NCBI GenBank assembly: GCA_902533295.1 | Contig: CACALG010000001.1 | Span: 19,048 to 83,047, forward strand | Origin: an uncultured marine group III euryarchaeote | Lineage (GTDB): Archaea; Thermoplasmatota; Poseidoniia; MGIII; CG-Epi1 | Reading direction: 5' to 3' | Length of the DNA: 64,000 nt | Part shown: positions 1-48,706 of the stretch, one piece after another | Numbering within the stretch: the stretch's first letter is position 1 | How the letters are laid out: every line of letters starts with the position of its first letter | Made by a program: the position numbers and the translations under genes | Notes under the pieces: model-generated | Databases searched by the model: none | Told to the model about the DNA's origin: nothing | What the model saw: only the letters and a program-made list of their open reading frames with translations

Positions 1-477
1 TCTAAAAATACTGAGTTTACAAAGTTAGTTAATGTACTTCAAGAGAAATTGATTCATCCTGGTAAAGTTGGGCGTGTGCATAACCTTTTCTTGCTTTCAA
101 AATCAGGTATTGTTATTAGCAACCTATCTGCTAATGATGTTGAAGAGACTGATGCAGATATATTAGGTGGAATGTTTACAGCTGTAAAGAATTTCATGGA
201 AGATGCGTTTAGTGCACGCAGTGATTCATCATTGAATGATATACAATTTGGTAATTTCCACATAACATTTGCTTCTGGAGCTTATTCAGAATTGGCAGTT
301 GTATATACAGGAATAATTAATCAAGCCTCAGAAGATGCTATTGCAGATACATTAATCGCTTTTGAATTAGAACATATGGCGGTTTTGGAAAATTGGGATG
401 GTGATCTTTCAAAATTAGCAAATTCAGCAGATTATTTGGAAAAACTTTTTTCAGATATTGATAAGGATAAAAGTTAA
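1..477 (+). CDS. 3' end of a gene running in from upstream of the window; Roadblock/LC7-like domain homologous to the cytoplasmic C-terminus of the 1720-aa surface protein
   Basis: Frame is open from nt 1 with no stop, so the first listed start (TTG at 49) is unlikely to be the true start. Translated sequence aligns with the C-terminal tail of ORF 16966..22128 (DADILGGMFTAVKNFMEDAF vs DTDIMSGMLTAINDFVQDSF; NWDGD vs NWNGD). Confidence 0.4.
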   Translation, partial: SKNTEFTKLVNVLQEKLIHPGKVGRVHNLFLLSKSGIVISNLSANDVEETDADILGGMFTAVKNFMEDAFSARSDSSLNDIQFGNFHITFASGAYSELAVVYTGIINQASEDAIADTLIAFELEHMAVLENWDGDLSKLANSADYLEKLFSDIDKDKS

Positions 478-1358
478 TCCTTTTTTAGTCTTGCAATTAT
501 ATGGCTGGTACTCGGTCCGTAGAATTTCACTCTTTCAAATTTTTCTACAGTAAATCTCTTTGTACCCATTAATTTAGAGAATTTTTCAGGAACTGTTCCC
601 CAGTCACTTCTACTTTTGAATCCTAACCAGTTATTTCGATATGCTTCATGAAAGATAACCGTCCCCTTATCATTTAAGCAGCTGTAAGCGTGTTCTAAGA
701 AATCGATGGTGTTCCCAATATATCCTAAATGTATTACGTCTGCTTTCGTTTCAATATTTCTGCAATCATCATTGATTATTTCCATATTTTCGATGGCATT
801 ATTTTTAGCGTTTAAGGAAAGATATTCAATAGATTTTGGGTTCTTGTCAATTGCAATTATTTCCGCTTCAGGATATCCCTTTGCCATTTGAATTGAAAAG
901 TATCCAATTCCAGCAAAATAATCTATAATTGTCTTAGGTTTGTCAAACGTATAAAATTCGGAAATTTTTTCTGGACCAGACAAAGCAGATCTCCATCCTG
1001 TATTTCCTGGAGACCACATAATCTCAGCTAAATCTAATTTGTATTTTATTCCATATTCTGAGATTTCTGTAACAGTTTCCTTTCCGTATAAAATTTTAGT
1101 ATCTTCTGGCTTTCGTAGTTCACCTGATATCTTATTCTTCTGTATTATGCTCTTTGCGTTAAGAACTTGTGCATAAATTTCAGCTATATTTTCTTTTTCT
1201 TTCTTAATATTAGATAAATCTAGAATCACTATATCTCCTATTTTCTTCCATTTTCTTGGTAGATTGTTGTGTAATTCTGAATCAATTTTACTTGTTATTT
1301 GTTCAAAAGGTTTCATTCTTCGGCTAACTTTCTTAGTACGGCTATTTCTGGTTTCCAC
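474..1358 (-). CDS. class I SAM-dependent tRNA methyltransferase, Trm5/Taw2 (Met-10+) family
   Basis: SAM-binding motif region IIDYFAGIGYFSIQ...IIAIDKNP typical of Trm5/Tyw2 family. An alternative start at the M at codon 15 (nt 1316) would reduce the 46-nt overlap with nfo to about 2 nt. Confidence 0.55.
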   Translation of the reverse strand: METRNSRTKKVSRRMKPFEQITSKIDSELHNNLPRKWKKIGDIVILDLSNIKKEKENIAEIYAQVLNAKSIIQKNKISGELRKPEDTKILYGKETVTEISEYGIKYKLDLAEIMWSPGNTGWRSALSGPEKISEFYTFDKPKTIIDYFAGIGYFSIQMAKGYPEAEIIAIDKNPKSIEYLSLNAKNNAIENMEIINDDCRNIETKADVIHLGYIGNTIDFLEHAYSCLNDKGTVIFHEAYRNNWLGFKSRSDWGTVPEKFSKLMGTKRFTVEKFERVKFYGPSTSHIIARLKKD

Positions 1359-4528: not shown

Positions 4529-4605
4529 GGGTCCGTGGTCTAGTTGGTTATGACGTCGCCTTGACATGGCGGAGATCCCCGGTTCGAATCCGGGCGGACC
4601 CACCA
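4529..4605 (+). tRNA. tRNA-Val (anticodon GAC), CCA encoded
   Basis: Hand-folded cloverleaf: acceptor GGGTCCG/CGGACCC, anticodon loop TTGACAT with U33, T-arm CCCGG-TTCGAAT-CCGGG, discriminator A followed by CCA. Confidence 0.85.
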
Positions 4606-9191: not shown

Positions 9192-9240
9192 ATTTTTATT
9201 CGAAATCAATTTAGCGCTAGGCAGCCAACCCTAAATCTTA

Positions 9241-10707
<1,467 letters not shown>

Positions 10708-10989: not shown

Positions 10990-13900
10990 TTAAACCTTAA
11001 CTTGAAATTGTTGCCCAGGCTGTAATCCAGCAGGTATTGCAACAGTTACAACACGACCATCTGGTGCCTTAATTTGAATCTGCTGTCCTGGTTGTGCTCC
11101 AGCAGGTACTGCTACATTCAGAACGGTTCCTCCAGGAGCTGGTGCAGGCGGAGCTGCAGGTTCAGGGGCAGGTGGTTGTTCTGGAACTGGTGCAGGAGGT
11201 GCTGCTGCAGGTTCAGGGACTGGTGGTTGTTCTGGAACTGGTGCAGGAGGTGCTGCTGCAGGTTCAGGGACTGGTGGTTGTTCTGGAATTGGTGCAGGAG
11301 GTGCTGCTGGTGGTTGCTCAGTTATTGGAGGTGCAGCAGGCGGTTGTTCTGGTAATTCACCACCGAAAGCATCCAGTGAATCTCCAGAAGACTTAGATCT
11401 AGAATAGAAAAAGTATCCAGCTCCAGCTCCAACTAATACTACAGCTCCTGCCCCGGCTAAAACGATTGGATTAAATGATTCTGATGATCCTCCCCCTGTA
11501 ACTTCACTTTCTTTGAGTGTTCCTGAAACAGCTATTTTTACGATTTCAGAATCATCATTTAGAGCATCCTGTGGGCCCAATGCAGGTATTACACTATCTC
11601 TGTTAATTCTAACTTTTAGAGTTAGTTCACCATCATAAGGATCTGGTAATATATGTATTATTTGAACTTCAAGTGAACCAAAACCATCTATTGTAAAGTT
11701 TCCATCATTACCAGGATAAGTATCATCGTCCAAAGTGACTACAGAACCAAATTCTAACAATTCAAGAGTTCCACTAGCTGAAGCTCCCCCTTCGTTTGCC
11801 AAAAATATTTTTAGAGTAACCTCATCTCCTTCGCCAGCATTCATAGGAATTGCCATGAGACTTGTGATTGCGAGACTTGGTGGAGTGGAAATTTCCACTC
11901 TATTATTTGTATCAGAGAAAATAAGTTCCTCTGAATCCCAAAATTGCTCTCCACTATTTTTAGCATTGATATCTCTGATTGATAACTCAAATGTCCAGAA
12001 GCCTGTAAAATCAGAATTTCCACCAGATAGGAAAGAAACTGAAGGATAATTCTCATTAAAAGTGATTATTGTCTCTTCATTAGCAGGTAATTCTATGGAA
12101 CCATAACTGTCAACAATACCTGCAAAATTAACTTGGAGGTCTTTTCCAGATTTTGTAAGGCTAATTTCAGCATTTGCAGTTACATCAAAAGAACCTTCAT
12201 TCATTACATGGATTTTTGCATAAGCAATTGAACCATCACTAAATGAGACAAGTTCATTGCCATTCTCATCCTCCCAAACAATCTGAGTAACTATCAAATT
12301 AGGCAATTTTTTAATATCAATATCAACTTCTTCATCAAACAGTACACCTTCTTCAGAATCTTCTAACATTATATACAATTTTTCTACATTAGCAGTAGGT
12401 GTGATCTCTCCTTGGAAAGTTTTTGTCTCATCTACATCAACTTTTGTTTGAGGCTCAATAGTTATGATATTGTCTTCATCATCACTATCATCCCAATACA
12501 AAGTAGTTGTAATCTCTCCATATTTTTCACCATCATTCTCAATTTCTAAACTCCATGTATTCGCTATTCCTTCAACAAGCATATCTCCAAATTCAATATT
12601 GTAAGTAATATCGGGAGATGCAGATGAAACCAATATTGATTGTGAAACACTATCTTCGGCACCCTGACTACTGTCTTCTGGTAAAGAATCTACAATTTCT
12701 GCAGTTATTGTGTGTTCTCCCTCAGGTATATCTCTCCAGGTTGTAGTCACTGTTTTAGATTCCCCTCCTGTTACTCCATCTATATTAGCTGTAGCAATCA
12801 AATCCCCTCCATTTCTGAATTCTACGGTTACTCTTGCATCACCTTCCCCGTCATTTGATATGACTGCTGAAATAATTACATCATTACCTTCCACTAATTC
12901 TCCGGAAAATGATAGATCATCTATTGATAAATCTGCATCAGTAGTCAAGATATTTAGATCAGTAAGTTTTACTCTTCCAGGAGTTTCAGAATTTAATTTT
13001 AGTATTGCTTCAGCTTCCAAATCATCACTATTCTCTATCACTGCATTAAGTGCACTGACTAGCCCATTTGTACTGACGTGAATCACGGCATCATATTCAA
13101 TACTCAATTCACTAAAACCTACAGTACCTTTAGATGAACTACCCACAGTCATTACAATTTCAGTCATTTCTACACCATATTCATCAACAATAGTGTCACC
13201 ATTGTCTATTGCATCTTGTAATGCTTCTTGTAGGGCATTTTTCAAAGATTTTATTCCACCGGATTCACCCCATGTTTGCGGAGAATTTTCACTGTTTAAT
13301 TCACCAGCCCATTCCCAATCATTATTATTTGTAATTTTAATGTATGGATCCTCTGGGTAATCATCACTAAGAGTGCTTCTTACATAGATATTTTTGTCCG
13401 TATCCTCGCCACCAGAAATATCTGTTTCTTCAGTAAATGCAAAGTATGTTTTATCTCCAACTACCATATCCATGCGGTGATATTTTGCAACTAGTTGCTC
13501 ATTGTCATAATCAGTAATCTCGAAGCTGTCAGACCATGAACCTCCATCATCCTGGGTAAAAGCGAAATAGTAATCATACGAGCCTCCGGAAGCATATTGA
13601 TATGAAATATATGTAAAACCAGAACCACTAGCAATACTTGGTAATGCAAGCGTAGTACTAGTATCGGTATCTATTGCAATTGTAACATCGTTCCATGTTT
13701 CTCCATTGTCATTGGATACTGCCCAAACAATATCATAATCACTTGAACCATCTCCATCATAATCTCCACTGTCTACCCAAGCTACATACAATTTTGATCC
13801 TTCAGCACTAATAACGGGAGTATATGAGTAATAAGCAGTTGTTCCTTCATTTAAATAGACTAAATCAGCCCAGGAACTTCCATCAGTACTATATGTGTAA

Positions 13901-16197
13901 TACAAAGATTCACCATATGATGAATCACTCCAAACTAAATGGAATTTTCCTTCATTATATAATATTTCAGGCATATAATTTAGGCCAGTTGTGTCTCCAC
14001 TTACCAGGATAGCATCATCCCATGAGCCACCACCATTAGTTGAACTGACTGTGTAAATATCATATGTATACGTATTTGTCCATGAAGCAACAATATTATT
14101 ATCATCATCTGATGTAATAGTTAAACCATATTTTACTCCCGTGTTTCCACTATCTATTTTTTCAGGTGATGTCCAATCTTTACCATTATTTGTTGATTTT
14201 GTGTAGTAAATTGAGGATACACCAGTATATCCGTTATAATCTGTCCACGCCACATGTACATCATCTCCAGATGCAGTGATATCGGCTCTATATTGTAATG
14301 TTGTTGAAGAATAATCTAAATCTGTAGCATGATCATCATCAAAATTAGAGAGAACACTAAGTTCTTCCCATGATTCTCCACCATCATCCGATCTTGTGAA
14401 ATATACATCACCATCTCTTGTAGACTGATCACAACCGTTTGTGTCATCTTCCTGATCTAAATCACCATTATCAAGATAAACAAGATACAAATAATCATTA
14501 GAGTAAGCGATACTTGGACTACCAGAGTCTGCCTCATAATAATGTTCGGAAATATCCTCTATATCAGACCATGTAGAACCATCATTACTACTAACAGAAT
14601 AAACTATATCTTGGTCGTTTGAAGCACCACTTCCATCATATTCATCTGACCAAACTACAAGAACTTCATCAGAATTTGCAGTGATAGTGGGTGATGCTCT
14701 AAACTCATTCACATCGCCATTACTAATTCCGTCAACATTAACTGGTGAATTCCATGAACTTCCTGAATTCGCACTCCGTACAGACATTATTTTACGTGGA
14801 GAATTAATATCGTCGATATCCATCCATGTCATATAGAAATTATTGCTCCCATCATTGTCAGATCCTAAAAATGAAAAACTGGATCCATCTGCTGCTTGAA
14901 TCACATTTTCAGAACCAAAACTTGTGCCAGAATTAGATGATGTTTTAGATTTTATTGCATAACCATCTCCTGTAAGTTCAAGCCATCCAATAATAACATT
15001 AGATCCTTGTGCAGAAATTGTTGTTTCAGTGACAGTCTCATCTGAACTTATAGTGCCTGGCGAGCCAAAAGTTTCGCCTCCATCTGTAGAACGTGCATAT
15101 TCTGCTGCATAGTAAGATTGAGATTCATAGTATTGTTCCCAGCTGATGTGTACATTGTTTCCGCTAAGGGCTATTTGAGCACCAATACTACTTGAACTAT
15201 CTGCATCTGAAATTAATATTTCATCGTCCCAAGATTGCCCTAAATCATCTGATTTTTGATAATAGATGTGGTATTCATCATTACTACTCTCTTTGAGAGC
15301 AGACCAAACAATATGAATGGTCCCATCACTACTTACAGCTCCATCGTAATCATAGATAATGTAATGCGAACTACCTGGTTCTATTTGCTGTCCAGTAGAC
15401 CATGTTTCTCCCTCATCATCACTATAGGAAGCTTCAATGACTTCACCACCTGTGTCTGATATCCAGGCAATAACGGCATGATCATCATTTGCATGAATGA
15501 GAACATCGCTAAGAATAGCGCTTGTTTCAGCTCCATTTGTAGCAATAAGTACTATATCATCCCAATTACCATCATAATATCTAAACTTAACAGAATCAAT
15601 AGTTGTATCTCTATCGGTCAAGTCTCCATCATCAATCCATGCTACATAGTAATCATCATCTAGCATAGATACTACTGGTGCACTCGAAGTAGAACCGCCA
15701 TTTGTGCCTATTGAGGCTTTATTATAGTCATTTAATTCACCAGATCCATAAGGTAAACCAGTTATTTTGATAGAGGCCTCATTGATTGTAGTATTCGTAG
15801 GAAGATATAGTGATACCTCTTCTTCACCACTGCCTGCAAACCTTGCGGATGCACCTTTAGCATTACTAGAAAATTTTTCCTGATAGCCTAAAGCCCCATA
15901 TCCAGTTCCATCATATTTCCATTCGTAATTTTTAACACCTAATGATAACCCTTCAGGATATGAACCATCACTATCAGGCATACCTGAAAGGCCAATATTA
16001 GCTTCTAAAACTTCTGTAGCAGGAAATTTAACAGAAACACTAGAATCCTCATTTTCACCATCTAAAGTAACTGTCTTTTCATCACTGCCATTACCTTCTT
16101 TGTAATAGGTTGTTGAGGTTTCCCCAAATACAGATGAAGTACTACTGAGCAAGAGAAGTGTCACGGCGAAAGCCACGACTTTGTTTTCAAACATCAT
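10990..16197 (-). CDS. giant secreted surface protein (1735 aa) with many BNR/Asp-box (SxDxGxTW) repeats, a C-terminal TM anchor and a proline-rich cytoplasmic tail
   Basis: Signal peptide; at least 12 Asp-box motifs (SDDEGETWS, SDDLGQSW, STDGGETF, SNDGSTW, SDDGGESW, STNNGKDW ...); TM IVLAGAGAVVLVGAGAGYFFY followed by 17-aa Pro-rich repeats. Confidence 0.6.
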   Translation of the reverse strand: MMFENKVVAFAVTLLLLSSTSSVFGETSTTYYKEGNGSDEKTVTLDGENEDSSVSVKFPATEVLEANIGLSGMPDSDGSYPEGLSLGVKNYEWKYDGTGYGALGYQEKFSSNAKGASARFAGSGEEEVSLYLPTNTTINEASIKITGLPYGSGELNDYNKASIGTNGGSTSSAPVVSMLDDDYYVAWIDDGDLTDRDTTIDSVKFRYYDGNWDDIVLIATNGAETSAILSDVLIHANDDHAVIAWISDTGGEVIEASYSDDEGETWSTGQQIEPGSSHYIIYDYDGAVSSDGTIHIVWSALKESSNDEYHIYYQKSDDLGQSWDDEILISDADSSSSIGAQIALSGNNVHISWEQYYESQSYYAAEYARSTDGGETFGSPGTISSDETVTETTISAQGSNVIIGWLELTGDGYAIKSKTSSNSGTSFGSENVIQAADGSSFSFLGSDNDGSNNFYMTWMDIDDINSPRKIMSVRSANSGSSWNSPVNVDGISNGDVNEFRASPTITANSDEVLVVWSDEYDGSGASNDQDIVYSVSSNDGSTWSDIEDISEHYYEADSGSPSIAYSNDYLYLVYLDNGDLDQEDDTNGCDQSTRDGDVYFTRSDDGGESWEELSVLSNFDDDHATDLDYSSTTLQYRADITASGDDVHVAWTDYNGYTGVSSIYYTKSTNNGKDWTSPEKIDSGNTGVKYGLTITSDDDNNIVASWTNTYTYDIYTVSSTNGGGSWDDAILVSGDTTGLNYMPEILYNEGKFHLVWSDSSYGESLYYTYSTDGSSWADLVYLNEGTTAYYSYTPVISAEGSKLYVAWVDSGDYDGDGSSDYDIVWAVSNDNGETWNDVTIAIDTDTSTTLALPSIASGSGFTYISYQYASGGSYDYYFAFTQDDGGSWSDSFEITDYDNEQLVAKYHRMDMVVGDKTYFAFTEETDISGGEDTDKNIYVRSTLSDDYPEDPYIKITNNNDWEWAGELNSENSPQTWGESGGIKSLKNALQEALQDAIDNGDTIVDEYGVEMTEIVMTVGSSSKGTVGFSELSIEYDAVIHVSTNGLVSALNAVIENSDDLEAEAILKLNSETPGRVKLTDLNILTTDADLSIDDLSFSGELVEGNDVIISAVISNDGEGDARVTVEFRNGGDLIATANIDGVTGGESKTVTTTWRDIPEGEHTITAEIVDSLPEDSSQGAEDSVSQSILVSSASPDITYNIEFGDMLVEGIANTWSLEIENDGEKYGEITTTLYWDDSDDEDNIITIEPQTKVDVDETKTFQGEITPTANVEKLYIMLEDSEEGVLFDEEVDIDIKKLPNLIVTQIVWEDENGNELVSFSDGSIAYAKIHVMNEGSFDVTANAEISLTKSGKDLQVNFAGIVDSYGSIELPANEETIITFNENYPSVSFLSGGNSDFTGFWTFELSIRDINAKNSGEQFWDSEELIFSDTNNRVEISTPPSLAITSLMAIPMNAGEGDEVTLKIFLANEGGASASGTLELLEFGSVVTLDDDTYPGNDGNFTIDGFGSLEVQIIHILPDPYDGELTLKVRINRDSVIPALGPQDALNDDSEIVKIAVSGTLKESEVTGGGSSESFNPIVLAGAGAVVLVGAGAGYFFYSRSKSSGDSLDAFGGELPEQPPAAPPITEQPPAAPPAPIPEQPPVPEPAAAPPAPVPEQPPVPEPAAAPPAPVPEQPPAPEPAAPPAPAPGGTVLNVAVPAGAQPGQQIQIKAPDGRVVTVAIPAGLQPGQQFQVKV
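11130..11335. repeat. tandem 51-bp repeat (~3.5 copies) encoding a 17-aa Pro-rich unit (PVPEQPPVPEPAAAPPA) in the cytoplasmic tail of the 1735-aa protein
   Basis: Direct repeats ctggaactggtgcaggaggtgctgctgcaggttcagggactggtggttgtt with period 51. Confidence 0.7.
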
Positions 16198-16248: not shown

Positions 16249-16986
16249 ATGACTGAACAATACCACATGAATTCCCATGAAGGCACATATACTAGGGAAT
16301 TTGAGGCTAAAGTAGAGGCTACATTCCCAGGCATCATCGAACTAGATAAGACTGCATTCTATCCATTGGGAGGGGGCCAACCCTCAGATATTGGAACAAT
16401 AACTTGGAATGAAGGAGATGCAAATGTTACTGATGTGAGGAAAAAAAATCGAATTAGGCACATTGTAGAAGGAGATTTACCAGAAGTTGGAGATTCCATA
16501 AAAGGTAATCTTGACTGGTCACGAAGATATTCACATATGAGAATGCATACTTCTCAACATTTAGTTTCTGCTGTAGTGAATGAAATATATGGTTCAGATA
16601 CCGTAGGAAATCAGATAGGAAATGAGAAGTCTAGAATAGATTTTAAGCCTTTAAAAATAAACCAAACTGAGCTTAATGAAGTAGAGGACAAAGTCAATGA
16701 TTACATATCTAAAGACTTGAAAGTTACTATATCTGAGGAATTACGGTCCAATTTAGAAAATAATCCAGATATCCGTTCAAGTATGTCTAGTGGTCTTTGG
16801 AAAATGTTACCGAAAAGTGTTACAGAATTAAGAGTAATAACCATAGGTGATATCGATGTTTGTCCATGCGCAGGCACTCATGTAAAAAGCTTAAAGGAAA
16901 TAGGTAATGTTTCTTTTATTAAAAGAGATAATAAGGGTTCTGAAAAATTAAGATTAACATATAATCTAGGCGATATCGACTCTTGA
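16249..16986 (+). CDS. alaX: alanyl-tRNA editing protein AlaX (AlaRS editing-domain homolog)
   Basis: Zn-binding HxxxH (HTSQH) and CxxxH (CAGTH) editing-domain motifs; 245 aa. Confidence 0.65.
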   Translation: MTEQYHMNSHEGTYTREFEAKVEATFPGIIELDKTAFYPLGGGQPSDIGTITWNEGDANVTDVRKKNRIRHIVEGDLPEVGDSIKGNLDWSRRYSHMRMHTSQHLVSAVVNEIYGSDTVGNQIGNEKSRIDFKPLKINQTELNEVEDKVNDYISKDLKVTISEELRSNLENNPDIRSSMSSGLWKMLPKSVTELRVITIGDIDVCPCAGTHVKSLKEIGNVSFIKRDNKGSEKLRLTYNLGDIDS

Positions 16987-19900
16987 ATTTGTAAGGCCCT
17001 CTCTGTCCTTTTGTTCATACATCATTTTAATTTCTACAGAAGTTGCAGCATTACTTTTTTGTTGCATTTTTAGTTTAAATTGTACTTCGTTATATGAAGA
17101 TATATCACCCACAATAAACGAGTTATCTGAGAATGAATAATATACATCTGGATCTATACCTACTAATCCTAAGATGCTACTATTGAATTCTGGACTTATT
17201 TTACAACTACTAATAGTTTCAGATGAATAATTACTGAGATTTACGTTCAAAGTTATATTTGTACCGAGTTTTTCGTATGATGATGTAATAACAATTTCTT
17301 TTTCAGTGAAGTAATTGTCAACCATTTCTCTTGTAGATGCAATTGTTTCATCAATTATTGGGTTCAGATAAATTTTTACCTGCTTTACACTCTCGGCATC
17401 TCCATTCCAATTTGCTAGGGTTGGATTAATTGTTTCTATAGCTCTAACGGCATTAATCAGCTTCCCTTTGAACATATTATCTATTTCTCCATAAATTACA
17501 GCAGCAAGATAGGAATGTTCTCCTCTCTGTAGAATGATTTTATTATTACCATAGTCTATGGAACCCAGATCTCCTTCAGTTTGAAATGAGTCTTGAACAA
17601 AATCATTGATTGCTGTGAGCATCCCGCTCATGATATCTGTATCAGTTTTAACTTCAACAGCACTAACATTTCTAAGAAGCCTTCCATCTTTGTAAATTAA
17701 ATATAATTCTTCAACTTTATACTTAGCAATAGGTTTTGATTCAATAATAGATACATTTTCATCTAATTCTTCTTTCCTAGATCGGTATAGTAAAACACCA
17801 CCAAACATTAAGAAAAGAAGACTTATACCTATAGTAGCAGGTAAAATTTCTTTCATTCCAAATTGATCAGTTTCTGTACCTGAGGAACTATATAATTTGA
17901 CTACTTCTTCCATACTTACTGTTTCATTATTAGAATTGCTAATGTGACCGAATTCATCTTCTATTGTGATTCTATAAAAATAATCTCTGTCTGGACTTGG
18001 ATTCTTATGAATCCATTCATAATAACCTTGTTTACAGGAAGTTTCCATACCAACTCCTATTATTTCTTGTGTGAACCATCCACTATCTGAAGCAGGTAAT
18101 TCATCAGCTACCATTTGTACTTTACAAATAGCGGCATCTTCAGGAATAACAAAACCTAAAACCAATTCTGTAGCATTAGTATGCGATATTGCAACATTTG
18201 TAGCTTTCTGAGGGTCCTCTGTAAATACTTCAAAAGTTAAATGAACTCCTGAATAATCAATTTTTATGTTGTTATTACCTGTAATATCCTCAGTTGGTAC
18301 AAAACCTCCATTTGAAGTTCCACCAAATTGAATAGTCTTATTGATTATATCTAAATAATATTCATCTACTAACAATTTATTTTTGTTCATTCCTCTAACT
18401 AATGCTTTTTCATATATTCCATCTAAATCATTATCTACACTAACATTAAACCAATGGATATCATTAATTGCTGGAATATATTTCAAATTGAAACTTTGAT
18501 CATATTGCCCATTGGAACTGAAATATTCAGTAGTATCTAGTGGATTCTCAAGATTGCCTGCAAGATCACGACTTTCAGCATACAGGAAATATCGTGTATT
18601 ATCTTGCAAGTCCTGTAATTTAATTTTATCATCAGAGATATCATGAGGTAATAAATACCAAGTTAATAGATCATTACCTTTCTCTATAGTCTGTATTGCA
18701 ATATATATCTTATAATCTAGATTTAGATTATCTGTATCTATGAAGATTTCTAGATAATCATATCCCCATTTTTGAGGTACATTTGAGAAAGAAATGGTAT
18801 CTACTTTCGATGCATAATTCATTATTATATCATATTCTTCTTTATCCTCACTATTTCCGGCATAATCACTAGCCAGAATTTTAAATGCATAATGACCTAA
18901 TTCATCAAATTCATAAATATAGTGCGTGTCTCCATAAATATTTATTGAATCCAGAGCTGTCCAAGTAACTGAATTAGGATCTAAATTAGCATTTGTAAAA
19001 TTAGAATAGGAAACCTCTAGAGTATTATACGCAATATCATCTGCACTATTCTTCCACGATAAATCTATTTGACTATTGCCTATGAAATAATAATCCTCTT
19101 CAAAATTCAAAAGTTCGGTGGAAGGTATGGATGTATCAATCTTAACTTGATACTCGTAATTATTCTTATTCTCTGTGTTTCCATAAATATCTCTAGCTAA
19201 TGATCTAAACCGATATTCCTTACCATCTTCGCCAGTAAACAATACAATTGATTCTGTAAACGTGCCATATTCTTCCCATTGGGCAAATTTATCATTTACT
19301 ATATACTCAATAATATATTCTTTGAAATCATTATCATCATTCAAAAGAGATATTTGTAACTCAATAGATTCTGAATTAATTAATCCAGTTCCGGGAATTA
19401 TCTCTGATTGTGGTGATGTTGTATCCAATAATGCTAAAAGTGTGTGATTATAGGATAAATTTTTGTATATTTCTACCATAATGTCATTATTATAATAAAT
19501 AATTCTTATGGGATTATAATTAATTTCATTTTGATCGGCAGCTTTGCTAATTACATTTATCATATAATAATCGGAAAAACCATAGTTATCAGTTTGTGAA
19601 TCAACCAGTTTACTTCCAAAAGAATTTTCGATATCAAAACCATGCTCTCTTGAACCAGTGCCCCGCTCATCAGCTATATTAATTTGCAAATTGTAGCGGA
19701 TCAAATAATCAGTATCACGACAATTAAAATCATTGTTTTGTAAAGTAGAATCACTGTCAATTAAGTCCAAACAAAAATCTCCTTCTGAGAATATATTATT
19801 ATCTATTGATATAGTACTATTAAATGAATAAATAGCTTTTTCAAAATCGTTAAAGACATTGTTTAAAATATTTATATCTGATCTATAAGAGCTTACTGAT

Positions 19901-22128
19901 TGTGTATTATTCGTTAATATATTATTTGAAATTCTTCCTTCACTATTATTTGCAGTTATAGCTATTTCCGAAAAATTAATAATATTGTCTTCTAAGTCAA
20001 AATCTGCAAGAACGACAGTTATAGATTCTCTAAAATTCGTTATTATATTATCACTAACTTCGACTTCACCTTCCTGCGAAAAAATACCTACTGCAGCAAC
20101 TTTTTGTAAATAAAGAACATCACATCTATCATGTGTGCATAATCCGGTTACATTATTATTAACTATTTTACTATATGTCCTGTTACTAAGAATACCATAA
20201 TCATTTACATGCAATATATTATCTTCAATAAGTATAGGAAACGTACTATCCTCAAATCCTCCTACTTCGATACCCACTGCCGAACTTAATGTATTATTTT
20301 TAATTATAGTTTTTGGAATATAATATGCATAAATTCCTGATAATTGTGATTCAGGACTCATGTTTGTTTGAACTGTATTATTTGCAATATATCCTTCTTC
20401 AACATCTCTGAACATTATGCCAGCACCATCGATAGAATGAACAAGATTATTTGTTACATGTATATTATCAATTGTAAATGCTGAACCAAACTGAGTATAT
20501 GCAGATATTCCATTATATTTTATATTTTTGAGTGTGTTATTAGCGACAATACCATTTGATATGTCGCCAAAACCATTATCATATATCCAAATTCCTATAG
20601 ACGCATTATCAATATAATTATCCACTATAGTAAAATTTTTGTAGAAATTCCAAACCGTTATTGCTCTTGCTGATGTATTAGTAATATAATTTGAAATTAT
20701 ATGATTATCAGTTCCTACATCATTATATACATTTTCAAAATCAAGCGCTATTGGAAAGTCATTATCATTGATGGTATTATTTATTATATAATTTCCAGAA
20801 GGTGATATACCTCCTTCAGGCCAACCCCAAAGTCCTATAGCTTGCCATCCTATTTCAAAATTATTATTTCTTATAGTATTATTGTTCTGAAATGAATTAA
20901 TAAAAATAGCAATTGTGTAATTTTCAAAGTAATTATTTTCGATTAAATGACCTCCACCATAATATTCATCTGTATCAAAATCCCAGAACCAGAAAATCAT
21001 ACAACTATGCCCCCAATAGGGTTGTTTAGACCCGCAATTTATGAATGTATTATTACTGTATTCATTTCTATTTCCTGCACGATCCATAAGATTGTGCCAA
21101 TATACGCCAGAAACATTGAATATGTTGCGGCTAATTATATTGTCATCTGTAGCTTGTAGAGACATATCATGTATTGTATTATTTAGAAATTGGTTATCAA
21201 TTATTGTATGATTACTGCCTTGAGTTATAGTAAGCGTACCTCTGCCTCCCTGTCCATTATCCTTGTAAATATAATCTCTAAAGATGTTACCACTAATTAG
21301 ATTATAATTCCCATAGGAAATAGTTACACCTAATGTACCGTTAATGAAAGTATTATTTTGTATTAAGGCGTTCTCTCCTGAGACAAACAAGTCATAGAAT
21401 ATGTAACTATTATAAATCGTGTTATTAATAAATCTAAAATTATCAGTATAAGCACTAATTATTCCAATCATATCAAATGTGGAATTAGTTATGTAAGATC
21501 CAGCTCCAGTAAATCTTAATGCCTTTACATACTCAAAATCAGAATTCTCAATAATTACCCTAGTATTAGGAATTCCTGAGCCTGGCTGATTATTTACTAA
21601 TCTGCCTACTTGAACAGTATAATCTAACCTCTCTGTGTAATTCCCTTTACCAATTATATTAGATTTAATAACGGAACGATCATTACTAGTTGTCGGATTC
21701 AAATCATAATCTGTAACAATTAGTACAGAATTCTCATTTAAATCAAGACAATTAGCAGTTATTTCACTATTCTTTTGAATAGAATCAAGTATTAATTCAG
21801 AATTAATTATGGTCAGTGTACTGTATAATGATATATTGTCACCATGTGAATCTTGTTCATGAAATACTGTAGAATTAATCCATCTGGTTTCTCCTCTAAT
21901 TTCAATGAAACCTTTTGATGATAGAGAAACGTTTTCAAGTTTCAAAGTCTTACCAAAATTAACGACAATATCTTTGACTGAGACGTCCTCATCCCAAACA
22001 TGCGTGTCTTGAGTGATAATCCAATCCTGACCCTCTTGGGGTGCATTTCCATTTGAACCTGCTGAAGCATTTCCAGTACTGATTACTATCGCAGTAATTG
22101 CGATTAAAAGAAATGCTGTTTTCTTCAT
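16966..22128 (-). CDS. giant secreted surface protein (1720 aa) with parallel beta-helix repeats, a C-terminal TM anchor and a cytoplasmic Roadblock/LC7-like domain
   Basis: Signal peptide; long run of N-rich beta-helix-like repeats (NNT..N..I); TM ILPATIGISLLFLMFGGVLLY near residue 1350; C-terminal ~130 aa homologous to ORF 1..477. Confidence 0.6.
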   Translation of the reverse strand: MKKTAFLLIAITAIVISTGNASAGSNGNAPQEGQDWIITQDTHVWDEDVSVKDIVVNFGKTLKLENVSLSSKGFIEIRGETRWINSTVFHEQDSHGDNISLYSTLTIINSELILDSIQKNSEITANCLDLNENSVLIVTDYDLNPTTSNDRSVIKSNIIGKGNYTERLDYTVQVGRLVNNQPGSGIPNTRVIIENSDFEYVKALRFTGAGSYITNSTFDMIGIISAYTDNFRFINNTIYNSYIFYDLFVSGENALIQNNTFINGTLGVTISYGNYNLISGNIFRDYIYKDNGQGGRGTLTITQGSNHTIIDNQFLNNTIHDMSLQATDDNIISRNIFNVSGVYWHNLMDRAGNRNEYSNNTFINCGSKQPYWGHSCMIFWFWDFDTDEYYGGGHLIENNYFENYTIAIFINSFQNNNTIRNNNFEIGWQAIGLWGWPEGGISPSGNYIINNTINDNDFPIALDFENVYNDVGTDNHIISNYITNTSARAITVWNFYKNFTIVDNYIDNASIGIWIYDNGFGDISNGIVANNTLKNIKYNGISAYTQFGSAFTIDNIHVTNNLVHSIDGAGIMFRDVEEGYIANNTVQTNMSPESQLSGIYAYYIPKTIIKNNTLSSAVGIEVGGFEDSTFPILIEDNILHVNDYGILSNRTYSKIVNNNVTGLCTHDRCDVLYLQKVAAVGIFSQEGEVEVSDNIITNFRESITVVLADFDLEDNIINFSEIAITANNSEGRISNNILTNNTQSVSSYRSDINILNNVFNDFEKAIYSFNSTISIDNNIFSEGDFCLDLIDSDSTLQNNDFNCRDTDYLIRYNLQINIADERGTGSREHGFDIENSFGSKLVDSQTDNYGFSDYYMINVISKAADQNEINYNPIRIIYYNNDIMVEIYKNLSYNHTLLALLDTTSPQSEIIPGTGLINSESIELQISLLNDDNDFKEYIIEYIVNDKFAQWEEYGTFTESIVLFTGEDGKEYRFRSLARDIYGNTENKNNYEYQVKIDTSIPSTELLNFEEDYYFIGNSQIDLSWKNSADDIAYNTLEVSYSNFTNANLDPNSVTWTALDSINIYGDTHYIYEFDELGHYAFKILASDYAGNSEDKEEYDIIMNYASKVDTISFSNVPQKWGYDYLEIFIDTDNLNLDYKIYIAIQTIEKGNDLLTWYLLPHDISDDKIKLQDLQDNTRYFLYAESRDLAGNLENPLDTTEYFSSNGQYDQSFNLKYIPAINDIHWFNVSVDNDLDGIYEKALVRGMNKNKLLVDEYYLDIINKTIQFGGTSNGGFVPTEDITGNNNIKIDYSGVHLTFEVFTEDPQKATNVAISHTNATELVLGFVIPEDAAICKVQMVADELPASDSGWFTQEIIGVGMETSCKQGYYEWIHKNPSPDRDYFYRITIEDEFGHISNSNNETVSMEEVVKLYSSSGTETDQFGMKEILPATIGISLLFLMFGGVLLYRSRKEELDENVSIIESKPIAKYKVEELYLIYKDGRLLRNVSAVEVKTDTDIMSGMLTAINDFVQDSFQTEGDLGSIDYGNNKIILQRGEHSYLAAVIYGEIDNMFKGKLINAVRAIETINPTLANWNGDAESVKQVKIYLNPIIDETIASTREMVDNYFTEKEIVITSSYEKLGTNITLNVNLSNYSSETISSCKISPEFNSSILGLVGIDPDVYYSFSDNSFIVGDISSYNEVQFKLKMQQKSNAATSVEIKMMYEQKDREGLTNSRVDIA

Positions 22129-23943: not shown

Positions 23944-24449
23944 TGCAAAAATATGCCCTAACTGGAACACCAGGAACGGGCAAAACCTCAGTATCTAAGC
24001 TATTAAATGAAAAGGTAATCTCTCTTTCAAATTATTATAAGAAAGCCTCAGAAGGGAAAACAAAAGATGGAGAATGGCTTGTAGATATTGGAAAATTAAA
24101 TCAGATTCTTGAAACTTCAAATTCAAATCTTTTTGAGGGAAATTTTGCTCACAAACTAGATAATATAGATAAGATAATCGTTCTAAGATGCGACCCGAAT
24201 ATACTAAAAAAAAGATTAGAGGAAAGAGGATACAACAAAGAAAAGGTAATGGAAAATATTGAGGCAGAAGCTATTGGTTTAATTTTCTCAGAATCAATAG
24301 ATTATGTAGGGAAAAATAATGTTATTCAATTAGACACAAGTAATACTGATGTTGAAAGTATATCAAATATTATAGGAAAATATTTGGACGGGAAGATTAA
24401 AGTAGAAGAAGAAATTGATTACTCAGAAAGAATATTGGATTGGTACTAA
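23943..24449 (+). CDS. putative nucleoside monophosphate/adenylate kinase, Fap7/AK6-like
   Basis: P-loop ALTGTPGTGKTS at N-terminus, ~170 aa, typical of archaeal Fap7/AK6 homologs. Confidence 0.5.
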   Translation: MQKYALTGTPGTGKTSVSKLLNEKVISLSNYYKKASEGKTKDGEWLVDIGKLNQILETSNSNLFEGNFAHKLDNIDKIIVLRCDPNILKKRLEERGYNKEKVMENIEAEAIGLIFSESIDYVGKNNVIQLDTSNTDVESISNIIGKYLDGKIKVEEEIDYSERILDWY

Positions 24450-24450
24450 G

Positions 24451-25053
24451 ATGGTAGCTGACGATTACAGAGATTTTGGAACAAAATTACTTGATCCTAT
24501 AGCAGAAAAAATACCTCTTGGGCCAATGGGAATAAGTTTTTTATCGTTATTAACTGCAATTGGTGCAGGATATTCCTTTTTTATTATAGAAGATAATTTG
24601 TCAAATAAAGAATGGTTACTAATTGGTTCTGGACTCGTATTTCTAACAGCTGTTCTCGATGCACTTGATGGTATAGTTGCACGAAAAAGAAACTTATCTA
24701 GTAAGAGAGGAGACTTGGTAGATCATACACTTGATAGAGTTGCAGACATTCTAATTATTGGAGGTATTGCTTTTGGAGCCCTTGTAAATATCGAAATTGG
24801 TTTTGCTGCGATTATTGGAATTCTAATGTTATCTTATATGGGAACACAAGCTCAAGCAGTGGGGGCTGGCAGAGAATATGCAGGTTTACTTGGTAGAGCA
24901 GACAGATTAATCGTACTGATGCTCATTCCAATATTTCATTACTTTAATCAAGAATATAATTATATGGAGTTAATGTGCTATGCATTTGCAATTATTTGTA
25001 CATTATCTGCCATTTATCGGTTTCAAAAAATCTGGATTGAATTAGAAGAATAG
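24451..25053 (+). CDS. CDP-alcohol phosphatidyltransferase family protein
   Basis: Signature D-G-x2-A-R-x8-G-x3-D-x3-D (DALDGIVARKRNLSSKRGDLVDHTLDRVAD); multiple TM helices; ATG immediately after the upstream stop (an alternative in-frame start at 24415 overlaps). Confidence 0.7.
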   Translation: MVADDYRDFGTKLLDPIAEKIPLGPMGISFLSLLTAIGAGYSFFIIEDNLSNKEWLLIGSGLVFLTAVLDALDGIVARKRNLSSKRGDLVDHTLDRVADILIIGGIAFGALVNIEIGFAAIIGILMLSYMGTQAQAVGAGREYAGLLGRADRLIVLMLIPIFHYFNQEYNYMELMCYAFAIICTLSAIYRFQKIWIELEE

Positions 25054-25225
25054 TGGTGGGAGCACTGGGATTTGAACCCAGATCGGCGGGTCTCACCTAT
25101 TGAGCCGGAGCCCATAGTTTGCACAGGTCATAGCTCCAATCATTCATCACGACATCAGCAGACCCTGTAGCAATCATTCCTGTATAATTGGAGCCCGCAA
25201 TGCTGCCAGGTTACACCATGCTCCC
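25054..25225 (-). tRNA. tRNA-Trp (anticodon CCA) with a ~96-nt intron in the anticodon loop; intron contains box C/D-like motifs
   Basis: Hand fold: acceptor GGGAGCA/TGCTCCC, D-arm GTGT-AACCTGGCA-GCAT, anticodon stem GCGGG/CCCGC, loop CTCCAA|A, T-arm CTGGG-TTCAAAT-CCCAG, ACCA end. Intron ~25092..25187 contains GTGATGA (box C-like) and CTGA (box D-like). Confidence 0.7.
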
Positions 25226-25307
25226 CAATATAGGCTGATTAGAACACTACAATAAAAAGTCTCTGATGAGTAACGTTAATAACGTATGCTTTATCGAGTA
25301 TACATAA

Positions 25308-25745
25308 ATGAGCTCAGATGAAGAAACCGAAGAGGAGGTTTTGAATGAGCACAATCCTGCACCTCCTACTGAAAGAATTTGGATGCCCGTTTATCAGGAT
25401 GAAGATAAAAAACTAGCTAAACATGATTGGTGTTTAGATACTGGAATTATTAAGAATCTTAGTGGAGAAGAAGCAAAGCCTAAAGGTTTCTATGTTTCAG
25501 TTCTAAACAAAATGAAATACATTCTGGAACATGATTTAGGACACAGTAGAGGTGCTCCAAAATTTCCAGCTTCACAAATTAAACTAATTATAAAAGATTT
25601 AGATAATATAGATGGCTTCTATGATAAATGGTGGAGAACTGAATCTTCTCAATTGGAAGCCTTTATTCGTGTAGTTCAAAATAGAAGGGCTGACTTATCA
25701 CAAAGATTTATTATAGATTCGGTAACGAGGACTCTACGTGGTTGA
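25308..25745 (+). CDS. hypothetical protein
   Basis: 145-aa ORF, acidic N-terminus, no recognised motifs. Confidence 0.3.
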   Translation: MSSDEETEEEVLNEHNPAPPTERIWMPVYQDEDKKLAKHDWCLDTGIIKNLSGEEAKPKGFYVSVLNKMKYILEHDLGHSRGAPKFPASQIKLIIKDLDNIDGFYDKWWRTESSQLEAFIRVVQNRRADLSQRFIIDSVTRTLRG

Positions 25746-38484: not shown

Positions 38485-39864
38485 TTGGAAAAAAGAAACG
38501 CAGAGTTTATAATGGGCAGTTTTTGCGAACACATGGACCCAGTAAGTGTGCTTGACTACAGATACGGCACAGAGCAAATGAGAACTATATTTCGTGCTAA
38601 TTCATATTTACAAGCATTACTGGAAGTAGAAGCGACACTTGCCGAAGTACAAGAAGAGAAAGATATAATTCCTAAAGGAACCTCTTCCCAAATCCGTAAT
38701 GGAATCAGTGCAGTAAAACGTGAAAGAGTAGAAGAAATAGAATCTCAAATAAATCATGATGTCATGGCTGTTGTCAAAGCTCTCGAAGAACAATCTGGTG
38801 ATGCAGGGAAATGGATTCATTTTGGAGCAACCAGTTATGATATAGTAGATACTGCAAGAGCTTTACAGCATAAAAGTGCTATTACGTTATTGGAAGTTGC
38901 AATTGATAAATTAATAAATTCTTTAGCTCATTTAGCAAAAGAACATAAAAAAACAGTTATGTTAGGCAGAACACATGGCCAATGGGCAACACCAATTACT
39001 TTCGGCCTAAAAATGGCTGTTTTTACATCTGAACTGAAGAGACACAGAGATAGACTTATTGAATTAAAACCTAGAATATTAACAGGGAAATTTCTGGGTG
39101 CTGTAGGTTCTGGAGCTGCAATGGCACCACATACTCTAGAAGTTCAAAGTGCTATTTGCAAAAAATTAAGTCTCAATGAACCATTAGCTACAACACAAAT
39201 ACTCGGTCGAGATCGAATTGCAGAGTTGATAGCTTGGGGTTCTAATCTAGCAGTAAGTTTAGAAAAATTCACTACAGAAGTACGTAACCTACAAAGAAGT
39301 GATATTGGTGAAGTAGCTGAAGCCTTTGATCGTGAAAAACAGGTTGGATCTTCTACTATGGCTCAAAAAAAGAACCCAATTACATCTGAGAATATTGGCG
39401 GATTAGCAAGAGTTGTTAGATCTATGCTCTATACTTCTTATGAGAATAATTTGCAGTGGCATGAAAGGGATTTAGCCAATTCCAGTGCAGAGAGAATAAT
39501 TTTGCCTCAATTCTACATATTATTAGAATATATTTTAGTCAAATCTGACAATGTTTTCTCAAACCTCTATGTTAATAAAAAAAGGATGAAAGAAAATCTA
39601 GACAATGCTGGTGGTTTACCTATGGCAGAGGCTTTTGTTATCGCACTAGGAAAAACAGATTTAGGAAGACAAGAAGCCCATGAACTCGTCAGAACTATCA
39701 CAATGGAAGCTGAGAAGTCAAATATATCATTTTCTCAAGCAATAGAAGAGAATAAAGAAGTTTTAAATTATTTAAATCAGAAAGAAATAAGTTATTGTTT
39801 AGATCCTCAAAATTACACGGGCCACTCTGAAGAAATCATTGACAAAGTTTTGGGTTCATTATAA
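38485..39864 (+). CDS. purB: adenylosuccinate lyase
   Basis: Fumarate-lyase signature GSSTMAQKKNP; 459 aa. Confidence 0.85.
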   Translation: MEKRNAEFIMGSFCEHMDPVSVLDYRYGTEQMRTIFRANSYLQALLEVEATLAEVQEEKDIIPKGTSSQIRNGISAVKRERVEEIESQINHDVMAVVKALEEQSGDAGKWIHFGATSYDIVDTARALQHKSAITLLEVAIDKLINSLAHLAKEHKKTVMLGRTHGQWATPITFGLKMAVFTSELKRHRDRLIELKPRILTGKFLGAVGSGAAMAPHTLEVQSAICKKLSLNEPLATTQILGRDRIAELIAWGSNLAVSLEKFTTEVRNLQRSDIGEVAEAFDREKQVGSSTMAQKKNPITSENIGGLARVVRSMLYTSYENNLQWHERDLANSSAERIILPQFYILLEYILVKSDNVFSNLYVNKKRMKENLDNAGGLPMAEAFVIALGKTDLGRQEAHELVRTITMEAEKSNISFSQAIEENKEVLNYLNQKEISYCLDPQNYTGHSEEIIDKVLGSL

Positions 39865-40304
39865 TGCAAGGATTTGCAATAAGCAATTTAACGAATAAGA
39901 ATCTTAAACAAAAAGCAAACAAAATTGTACTTGATTTAGTCAAAAAAGGGCTAAAAGTAAAATACAAAATCTTTGGGAAATATATATATTTAGAATCAAA
40001 AAATGAAATAACTCAAAAAAATTTGAATAAAAATATCTATCATGCAAAAATGAGCACAGATAAAAAAGATGAGATTTTCACATCTATAAGTGGGTTAATA
40101 GACGGTACAAAAGAACCTGCAGATTTTGCAGTAAGAGTCAATCGAAAAGGTGAACATAAATACACTTCAACTGAATTAGCTAAAGAAGTAGCCGGGGCTG
40201 CATTTGAAGAATGGCCAAATATTAAAGTAAATCTAGACAAACCCTCATTAGAAATTAATATTCAAATTATTAATAATCGGAGTATTATATACTTAAGAAA
40301 CTAA
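39864..40304 (+). CDS. THUMP-domain-like small protein (putative RNA-binding)
   Basis: C-terminal region FAVRVNRKGEHKYTSTELAKEVAG resembles the THUMP core (fsvrvkRrG.h.ftS.e.a.evG). Confidence 0.35.
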   Translation: MQGFAISNLTNKNLKQKANKIVLDLVKKGLKVKYKIFGKYIYLESKNEITQKNLNKNIYHAKMSTDKKDEIFTSISGLIDGTKEPADFAVRVNRKGEHKYTSTELAKEVAGAAFEEWPNIKVNLDKPSLEINIQIINNRSIIYLRN

Positions 40305-48154: not shown

Positions 48155-48706
48155 ATGTCAAATAATTATACAGTTTACAGAGATCTAAAAGAACGTGGTT
48201 TAATAGTAAAAATTGATGATTTTGGCCTAAGAGTTTATGACCGAAAAACTGAAACTAAAGGACAAGCATCTGCAATTGTTTTGCCTAAAAATTTCGACGA
48301 AAAAATAGATTTTAGCAATATTTTTAATGAACTGGAAAAGGGACTTGAGAGAAGAGTCCAAATTGGAATAATAGATTCTGACAATGATGTAGTATATTAT
48401 GTGATTAAAGGCATCAAATGGGATGAAACTAAACTAAAAGAAGGTCAAAAAAGTACAATTACAGACAAGGAAGTTCAAGAACTACTCGAGAAAGGATACC
48501 AAATAAATTCTGGATTAAAATTTGGAACACATTACAGAGTCTACAACTATGAGTCAAATCATGCCCCTTGGCTAATACACGTCATAAAAGAAGGAATTAA
48601 TTGGTTAGATATTGCAAGAATGGTACGTGTAGGTCATGGTGTCAATAAGACAATAGTTTTAGCATACAAACAGAAATGGCTTAGTATTGAATGGATTAAA
48701 CCTTGA
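48155..48706 (+). CDS. endA: tRNA-splicing endonuclease EndA (catalytic repeat plus degenerate repeat); probably begins upstream near 47960 without a canonical start codon
   Basis: C-terminal catalytic domain GYQINSGLKFGTHYRVYNYESNHAPWLIHV; preceding degenerate repeat VYRDLKERGLIVKIDDFGLRVYD; an EndA N-terminal-domain-like segment (GILITDERL...EEALYC) continues in-frame upstream of the ATG. Confidence 0.65.
   Translation: MSNNYTVYRDLKERGLIVKIDDFGLRVYDRKTETKGQASAIVLPKNFDEKIDFSNIFNELEKGLERRVQIGIIDSDNDVVYYVIKGIKWDETKLKEGQKSTITDKEVQELLEKGYQINSGLKFGTHYRVYNYESNHAPWLIHVIKEGINWLDIARMVRVGHGVNKTIVLAYKQKWLSIEWIKP

Follow-up and report, generated by a model that had tools for sequence, protein, structure and literature searches.

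The intron of the Haloferax volcanii pre-tRNA-Trp is reportedly a box C/D guide RNA, an arrangement that Clouet d'Orval (2001) and Singh (2004) are said to have described. According to published accounts, this intron guides 2'-O-methylation of C34 and U39, the splicing endonuclease requires an hBHBh' (bulge-helix-bulge, BHB) structure, and the intron, once excised, exists as a stable circle (PMC4090602, PMC7714728, PMC3326292). The intron and its methylations are dispensable in Haloferax (PMC4090602). The tRNA-Trp intron of Sulfolobus solfataricus is a stable circle of 65 nt that is complementary to positions 34 and 39 and carries no recognisable C and D boxes (PMC3326292).

Here we describe an intron of this kind from a Marine Group III (MGIII)-related archaeon (Thermoplasmatota), encoded in a 64-kb stretch of DNA with a G+C content of 35%, hereafter the window. 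As in H. volcanii, the intron interrupts tRNA-Trp(CCA) at position 37/38, has the layout of a double-guide box C/D RNA directed at positions 34 and 39 of its own tRNA, and is accompanied by a BHB. It is 96 nt long, compared with 103-105 nt in Haloferax, and position 39, a U in Haloferax, is a C here. Further differences from the Haloferax intron are the non-consensus terminal boxes (AUGAUUG/AUGA), a D' duplex of 6 bp, and A37. The complementarity to positions 34 and 39 is shared with S. solfataricus, but the MGIII intron has all four boxes.

A literature search on MGIII tRNA introns found no paper. A first-pass annotation of the window had proposed the same arrangement as in H. volcanii, and guide geometry, BHB, box order and homology support that proposal. 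We conclude that the MGIII intron is a diverged member of a well-known system and not a new system. It would extend a known archaeal arrangement, the tRNA intron that serves as a modification guide for the tRNA it interrupts, to a marine lineage that is abundant and uncultured, where this arrangement appears to be under strong purifying selection.

An intron-containing tRNA-Trp(CCA) gene

The gene spans 172 nt and runs from 25225 to 25054; the tRNA is readable on the minus strand only, with its 5' end at 25225 and the encoded CCA finishing at 25054. ARAGORN in intron mode reported tRNA-Trp(cca) with a 96-nt intron at exactly 25054-25225, the coordinates proposed at first pass. The spliced tRNA, 76 nt in length, forms a regular cloverleaf with the acceptor stem GGGAGCA/UGCUCCC, discriminator A and an encoded CCA. 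The identity of the tRNA and the intron of ~96 nt at 37/38, both proposed in the same annotation, are agreed upon by ARAGORN intron mode, the cloverleaf and the BHB register scan described below. The gene consists of the following parts.

25054-25225, minus strand: pre-tRNA-Trp(CCA) gene with encoded 3' CCA (ARAGORN intron mode, spliced cloverleaf); conservation stops sharply at the gene ends in relatives
25188-25225, minus strand: 5' exon, 38 nt, ending ...GCGGG-CUCCAA, with the anticodon CCA at 25191-25189 and C34 at 25191 (ARAGORN, BHB scan)
25092-25187, minus strand: intron, 96 nt, at the canonical 37/38 position in the best hBHBh' register; the same position is best in 105/107 homologous pre-tRNAs
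25054-25091, minus strand: 3' exon, 38 nt, starting A38-CCCGC, with C39 at 25090 (ARAGORN, BHB scan)

Standard annotation does not recover this gene. Default ARAGORN and an Rfam scan at gathering threshold made no call at 25054-25225; across the whole window their sole matches were a tRNA-Val (4529-4605) and an archaeal 16S rRNA (9240-10707). Detection of the locus needed ARAGORN intron mode and Rfam E-value mode. A close relative (L078) was likewise missed by the sR3 and tRNA models at gathering threshold. Because the Rfam tRNA and sR3 models at that threshold and default ARAGORN all miss the gene, MGIII genomes annotated in this way would appear to have no tRNA-Trp, skewing estimates of completeness and of the tRNA complement.

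The gene is convergent with a CDP-alcohol phosphatidyltransferase ORF (24415-25053, plus strand), whose stop codon adjoins the last base of the encoded CCA (25051-25054). The oligo-T run 3' of the tRNA therefore lies inside the phosphatidyltransferase coding sequence. In two clade variants (L131 and L133), U26-to-C occurs in the tRNA body together with C44-to-U, a possible covariation of the 26:44 tertiary pair.

Box C/D anatomy of the intron

Read 5' to 3', the first half of the intron comprises UUAU, the stem strand ACAGG, a single A, box C (AUGAUUG), the spacer CUACAGGGUCUG, box D' (CUGA) and the linker UGUC. The second half comprises box C' (GUGAUGA), the spacer AUGAUUGGAGCU, box D (AUGA), the stem strand CCUGU and a 3' extension of 31 nt, which contains a hairpin and terminates in GGUGAG. 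All four boxes are thus present in the order C, D', C', D, and the terminal stem could support a k-turn. Each spacer, C-D' as well as C'-D, is exactly 12 nt, an archaeal hallmark, as in most of 107 homologs; box C was located in homologs by fixing the 12-nt spacing to D'. Both box motifs reported in the first-pass annotation exist, but they had been assigned to the terminal pair: GTGATGA, taken for box C, is the internal box C', and CTGA, taken for box D, is box D'. Its report of intron sequence complementary to the exon was borne out, with ATTGGAGC complementary to GCTCCAAT.

25179-25183, minus strand: terminal stem, 5' strand ACAGG, pairing with CCUGU at 25127-25123; equivalent pairs co-vary across 67 unique cores
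25171-25177, minus strand: box C, non-consensus AUGAUUG, exactly 12 nt upstream of D'; U at its position 6 and A at position 1 of box D form a pair
25159-25170, minus strand: D' guide spacer, 12 nt, of which GGGUCU pairs with intron A95-G96 and A38-C39-C40-C41, placing N5 opposite C39
25155-25158, minus strand: box D', CUGA (Rfam sR3 alignment, spacing)
25144-25150, minus strand: box C', GUGAUGA (sR3 alignment, spacing)
25132-25143, minus strand: D guide spacer, 12 nt, forming a 12-bp duplex with G30-A37 and the first four intron bases, placing N5 opposite C34
25128-25131, minus strand: box D, non-consensus AUGA (sR3 alignment, spacing, covariation)
25123-25127, minus strand: terminal stem, 3' strand CCUGU (covariation)
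25097-25117, minus strand: hairpin in the 3' extension, CUAUGGGC-UCCG-GCUC(A)AUAG, present in the minimum free energy (MFE) fold; a G-to-A change in relatives converts a G.U pair to A-U

Several sequences recur within the intron. The 9-mer GAAUGAUUG occurs twice (minus strand, 25171-25179 and 25137-25145), once as box C with the two bases that precede it and once from the end of C' into the start of the D guide. As a consequence of this duplication, the 5' splice junction CAAUUAU is an alternative pairing partner for box C, and the MFE fold contains this pairing. A second repeated sequence, UACAGG, is found once in the terminal stem and once in the D' spacer. At 25107-25113 (minus strand) the 3' hairpin holds GGGCUCC, which is identical to G29-C35 of the 5' exon and so mimics the D-guide target; across 20 clade sequences, variants of this hairpin sequence showed no correlation with variants of guide position N1.

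Guide geometry and predicted targets

The D guide can form a 12-bp duplex on the precursor, in which C34 is the partner of the nucleotide five positions upstream of box D. The D' guide can form a 6-bp duplex (GGGUCU with AGACCC) across the 3' splice junction, in which C39 is the partner of the nucleotide at the equivalent position upstream of D'. The original proposal was of a guide for C34 and U39, with antisense elements 5 nt upstream of D or D' relative to these nucleotides. That spacing is exact for C34 (D) and for the second target (D'), and the placement of both stands; the nucleotide at position 39, however, is a C and not a U. Predicted duplex energies were -15.7 kcal/mol on the precursor and -12.0 kcal/mol on the spliced tRNA for the D guide, and -11.3 and -6.6 kcal/mol, respectively, for the D' guide.

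When the intron was mononucleotide-shuffled 20,000 times, only 3 shuffles targeted both position 34 and position 39 with N+5-compliant guides of 6 bp or more, even though the C and C' boxes and the 12-nt spacing were not demanded. Given this result, and a test pattern with 0 expected matches in window shuffles, the dual-guide arrangement is more than chance. The 16S rRNA in the window offers no alternative target of note: the best guide matches to it were 8 bp, no better than chance (~3 per guide, estimated).

Position 37 is A in this clade; the 107 homologs include 98 with G37 and 6 with A37. Because of A37, a complete D' duplex requires the unspliced precursor, in which the 3' end of the intron supplies the AG; on the spliced tRNA the guide meets a C.A mismatch. 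Methylation of C39 would consequently have to precede splicing. It is also the least secure part of the model, since the D' duplex is just 6 bp long compared with 8-9 bp in most other lineages.

The clade's A37, in place of the usual G37, occurs alongside a gene for a Trm5/TYW2-family tRNA methyltransferase in the same window (474-1358, minus strand); the product of Trm5 is m1G37. A THUMP-domain protein is encoded at 39864-40304.

Splice sites and the bulge-helix-bulge

The unconstrained MFE fold of the pre-tRNA does not display a BHB; it is built on pairings that RNP proteins would occupy. For this reason we adopted an explicit scan, in which every register of the pre-tRNA was examined for a strict hBHBh' motif. 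The top-scoring register was CUCCAA^96 nt^ACCCGC (cuts marked by ^), which is the junction, CTCCAA^ACCCGC, of the first-pass annotation. Helix h is the 5-bp anticodon stem, the two bulges (AG^A38 and A36-A37^U) are 3 nt each, and h' has 3 bp (UAU/AUA). The central helix consists of C32-G, U33.U, C34-G and C35-G, so that three of its four positions are paired; the BHB anticipated at the predicted junctions is thus present, with one U.U mismatch. The same count, 3 of 4, is found in 29 of the 107 homologs.

25184-25193, minus strand: BHB 5' strand, with C32-C35 of the central helix, the bulge A36 A37^U and then UAU of h' (register scan)
25091-25100, minus strand: BHB 3' strand, with AUA of h', GGUG of the central helix and the bulge A G^A38 (register scan)

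With the cut sites held fixed, 2.4% of shuffled introns matched the observed BHB score, and the BHB taken alone is therefore only modestly significant. The BHB conformer lies 10.8 kcal/mol above the naked-RNA MFE, and we count both this and the U.U mismatch against our preferred explanation. The BHB is also in competition with the 3' hairpin, by way of that hairpin's lower stem.

ARAGORN itself reports a different placement, GCUCC^intron^AGACC, and if this were correct the mature anticodon loop would be CUCCAGA, with G37, instead of the CUCCAAA of the canonical register; the predicted mature exon junction would be CUCCAGACCCGC instead of CUCCAAACCCGC. Such a tRNA would carry the majority state of other lineages at position 37, and the D' guide would match the spliced tRNA as well. 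However, the BHB is not part of ARAGORN's model, and its register has no BHB, that is, it lacks 3-nt bulges separated by a 4-bp helix, while the canonical register scores best. Moreover, A37 together with a canonical BHB is also found at two Methanomicrobiales loci, in Methanogenium cariaci (L077) and in a Methanomicrobiaceae MAG (L080). The placement CUCC^...^AGACC was rejected as incompatible with a BHB, and we regard it as extremely unlikely to be the true splice register.

Homologs and the Rfam sR3 family

The guide-core pattern GGGTCTNCTGA...TGATGA...TTGGAGC, searched against genomes, matched at least 120 of them, from Methanomicrobiales, Archaeoglobales, Hadarchaeia, one Bathyarchaeota MAG, one Nitrososphaeria MAG and Poseidoniales MGIII. 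Among the matches listed, the core lay inside an intron-containing tRNA-Trp called by ARAGORN in 106/120, and several others were cut by contig ends. At loci of Archaeoglobus, Methanospirillum and Methanocorpusculum, the Rfam family RF01133 (sR3) scored 52-66 bits, nested in the tRNA match. Since these scores fall inside homologous tRNA-Trp genes, sR3 is the tRNA-Trp intron guide family.

In the window, the whole 55-nt sR3 model aligned end to end with the intron at 24.8 bits (E=3.6e-4 in a 701-nt search), short of the RF01133 gathering score of 41. This sub-threshold result is a failure of score and not of architecture. In the order of its boxes, its two spacers of 12 nt and its guide cores (GGGUCU-N-CUGA and UUGGAGC), the intron agrees with sR3. 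Unlike the sR3 of the higher-scoring lineages, it has variant C/D boxes, the 5' half of its D guide (AUGA) is matched to its own intron start (UUAU), and it carries the 31-nt 3' extension with its hairpin.

Four Hadarchaeia loci (L020, L034, L048 and L108) have tRNA-Trp introns of 58 nt with the D' guide, a D' box CUGA and a C' box AUGAUGA; at the 12-nt spacing they showed no recognisable box C (AGUGGCA instead), and no box D was parsed after UUGGAGC. These introns may represent a reduced or differently organised guide. One further guide-core match (L098) is in a MAG labelled Alphaproteobacteria and is accompanied by no tRNA-Trp call; it may reflect chance, with ~1 chance match expected for the pattern, or mis-binning.

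Conservation and k-turn covariation within the clade

The closest genome loci among the matches listed, two labelled Thermoplasmatota (L078 and L110) and two labelled Candidatus Poseidoniales MGIII (L003 and L049), are syntenic with the window. The pre-tRNAs at these loci are 97-99% identical to that of the window, compared with ~74% for flanking coding DNA. A pattern requiring box D to be ATGA matched 63 marine-metagenome contigs; pooled with the MAG loci and the window, they provided 59 complete pre-tRNAs that reduce to 20 unique sequences. Across 48 distinct genomic contexts (MAGs and marine-metagenome contigs), mean pairwise identity was 99.8% for the exons and 96.6% for the intron, against 78% for the 60-nt 5' flank and 60% for the 60-nt 3' flank.

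In the 20 clade variants, the intron sites that vary were limited to the linker between D' and C', the base adjoining box D, two spacer positions, and the 3' hairpin (its loop and lower stem); at one of the two spacer positions the change replaces an A-U pair by G.U. None of the 20 departed from D' CUGA, C' GUGAUGA or GGGUCU. Such a pattern would be unexpected for a neutral spacer and is consistent with purifying selection on a functional RNA.

We assessed covariation over 67 unique C/D cores from all lineages, using as control the same cores with the 3' partner slid by one. The three box-adjacent pairs of the terminal stem were paired in 61-65 of the 67 cores, as A-U, G-C, C-G or G-U, compared with 15-18 of 67 in the slid control. 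The pair between box C position 6 and box D position 1 (C6:D1) was kept in 67/67 cores, as G-C in 62 and as U-A in 5, and all five U-A cores come from the MGIII clade. The clade-wide change from G-C to U-A was probably a single evolutionary event and counts as one compensatory change, not five. The other homologs with a recognisable box D (n=99) carry RUGAUGA/CUGA consensus boxes. The MGIII k-turn AUGAUUG/AUGA retains its tandem G.A/A.G, its U.U and its terminal stem, and the covariation points to a compensated variant and not a decayed motif. A natural compensatory k-turn variant, together with a D' duplex that reaches full length only on the precursor, would be a small, testable addition to what is known of box C/D recognition and of the order of methylation and splicing.

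A proposed pathway and its alternatives

Our preferred reading, to which we assign a probability of about 0.85, is that the 37/38 intron of this tRNA-Trp(CCA) acts as a double-guide box C/D sRNA, directing formation of Cm34 and, less certainly, Cm39, before it is spliced out by EndA. The steps below are drawn from the anatomy of the intron and from the published Haloferax system. L7Ae, Nop5 and fibrillarin would assemble in the precursor at two sites, the terminal C/D k-turn (ACAGG-A-AUGAUUG ... AUGA-CCUGU) and the internal C'/D' motif. The D spacer would pair with G30-A37 and the first four intron bases, bringing the wobble base C34 opposite the fifth guide nucleotide, while the D' spacer would pair with the last two intron bases and A38-C41, bringing C39 opposite its own fifth nucleotide. 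Fibrillarin would then make Cm34 and, with less certainty, Cm39.

Both guide duplexes would need the anticodon stem to be melted. Guide duplexes, anticodon stem and BHB draw on overlapping nucleotides, which prevents them from all existing together; guide pairing and the BHB are mutually exclusive, and the RNA would therefore have to refold before cleavage. EndA would cut at the two 3-nt bulges, exon ligation would follow, and the excised intron would probably persist as a circle, by analogy with Haloferax and Sulfolobus. The functional importance of the modifications is uncertain, given that the Haloferax intron and its methylations are dispensable (PMC4090602).

The non-consensus boxes C and D count against this reading, in which binding of L7Ae to the variant k-turn is a prediction, as do the shortness of the D' duplex and the low sR3 score. 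Both terminal boxes depart from the consensus of the other 99 homologs and the sR3 score is sub-threshold, as would be expected if AUGAUUG/AUGA were no longer a functional k-turn and the intron a spliced spacer that merely keeps ancestral sequence. We consider such decay very unlikely: the box changes are compensatory at C6:D1 and leave the G.A/A.G, U.U and terminal stem in place, the intron is conserved far above its flanks in a way that a neutral spacer would not be, and the only parts of it that vary are the linker, N1 and the hairpin loop. A guide that is active on one side only deserves more weight. The D guide might modify C34 while the D' guide, its 6 bp too short for C39, survives as a conserved relic or for structural reasons. 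The shorter D' duplex is in keeping with this idea, as is guide position N8, an A opposite G42; in one metagenomic variant N8 is U, which would add a G.U pair and suggests that the duplex is marginal. Yet N5 falls exactly on C39 with a spacer of exactly 12 nt, the duplex is GC-rich, intramolecular and predicted at -11.3 kcal/mol, and the D', C' and GGGUCU elements are the same in 20/20 clade variants. On balance we judge a half-functional guide to be unlikely.

The double-guide reading also admits a stronger form, in which the variant box C does more than persist as a tolerable form of the k-turn, and the intron is a conformational switch working in a fixed order, with its splice sites hidden until the RNP has assembled and both methylations are complete. 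It would draw on the pairing of box C with the 5' splice junction, on the A37-dependent, precursor-only D' duplex and on the competition between the 3' hairpin and the BHB. We hold this form to be unlikely; if true, it would amount to a hard-wired methylate-then-splice checkpoint, compared with a looser order in Haloferax.

Genomic context

Upstream of the gene, the positions from -37 to -26 relative to the mature 5' end, the expected site of an archaeal BRE/TATA promoter, are occupied by AGACTTTTTATT. This element is conserved in the 48 distinct genomic contexts, while the surrounding bases vary. The TTTTTATT within it is probably an archaeal TATA box, a promoter role suggested by its position. 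As the first-pass annotation had noted, a gene for the tRNA-splicing endonuclease EndA is present in the same window.

25251-25258, minus strand: TATA box candidate TTTTTATT, at -33 to -26, within the clade-conserved AGACTTTTTATT
48155-48706, plus strand: EndA subunit, 183 aa, matching Pfam PF01974 (E=1.5e-25) and EndA catalytic domains in the PDB (E down to 2.6e-10)

Among ~40 ORFs scanned in the 64-kb window, none encoded fibrillarin, Nop5 or L7Ae, a result that is uninformative for a fragment of such size.

The near-palindromic GTTATTAAC (minus-strand reading, 25272-25280) is conserved in the clade within the 82-nt intergenic region and is seen in the 5' flanks of relatives too. It lies ~30-35 nt upstream of the ATG of a divergent ORF (25308-25745, 145 aa), which had no Pfam match, and is probably the TATA box of that ORF. 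Elsewhere in the window, the archaeal 16S rRNA gene (9240-10707, minus strand) is complete, at 1504 bits, and no 23S or 5S lies within the 64 kb; the rRNA genes therefore appear to be unlinked. Two very large minus-strand ORFs, at 10990-16197 (1735 aa) and 16966-22128 (1720 aa), have BNR, CARDB, beta-helix, NosD and cohesin domains and likely encode surface proteins.
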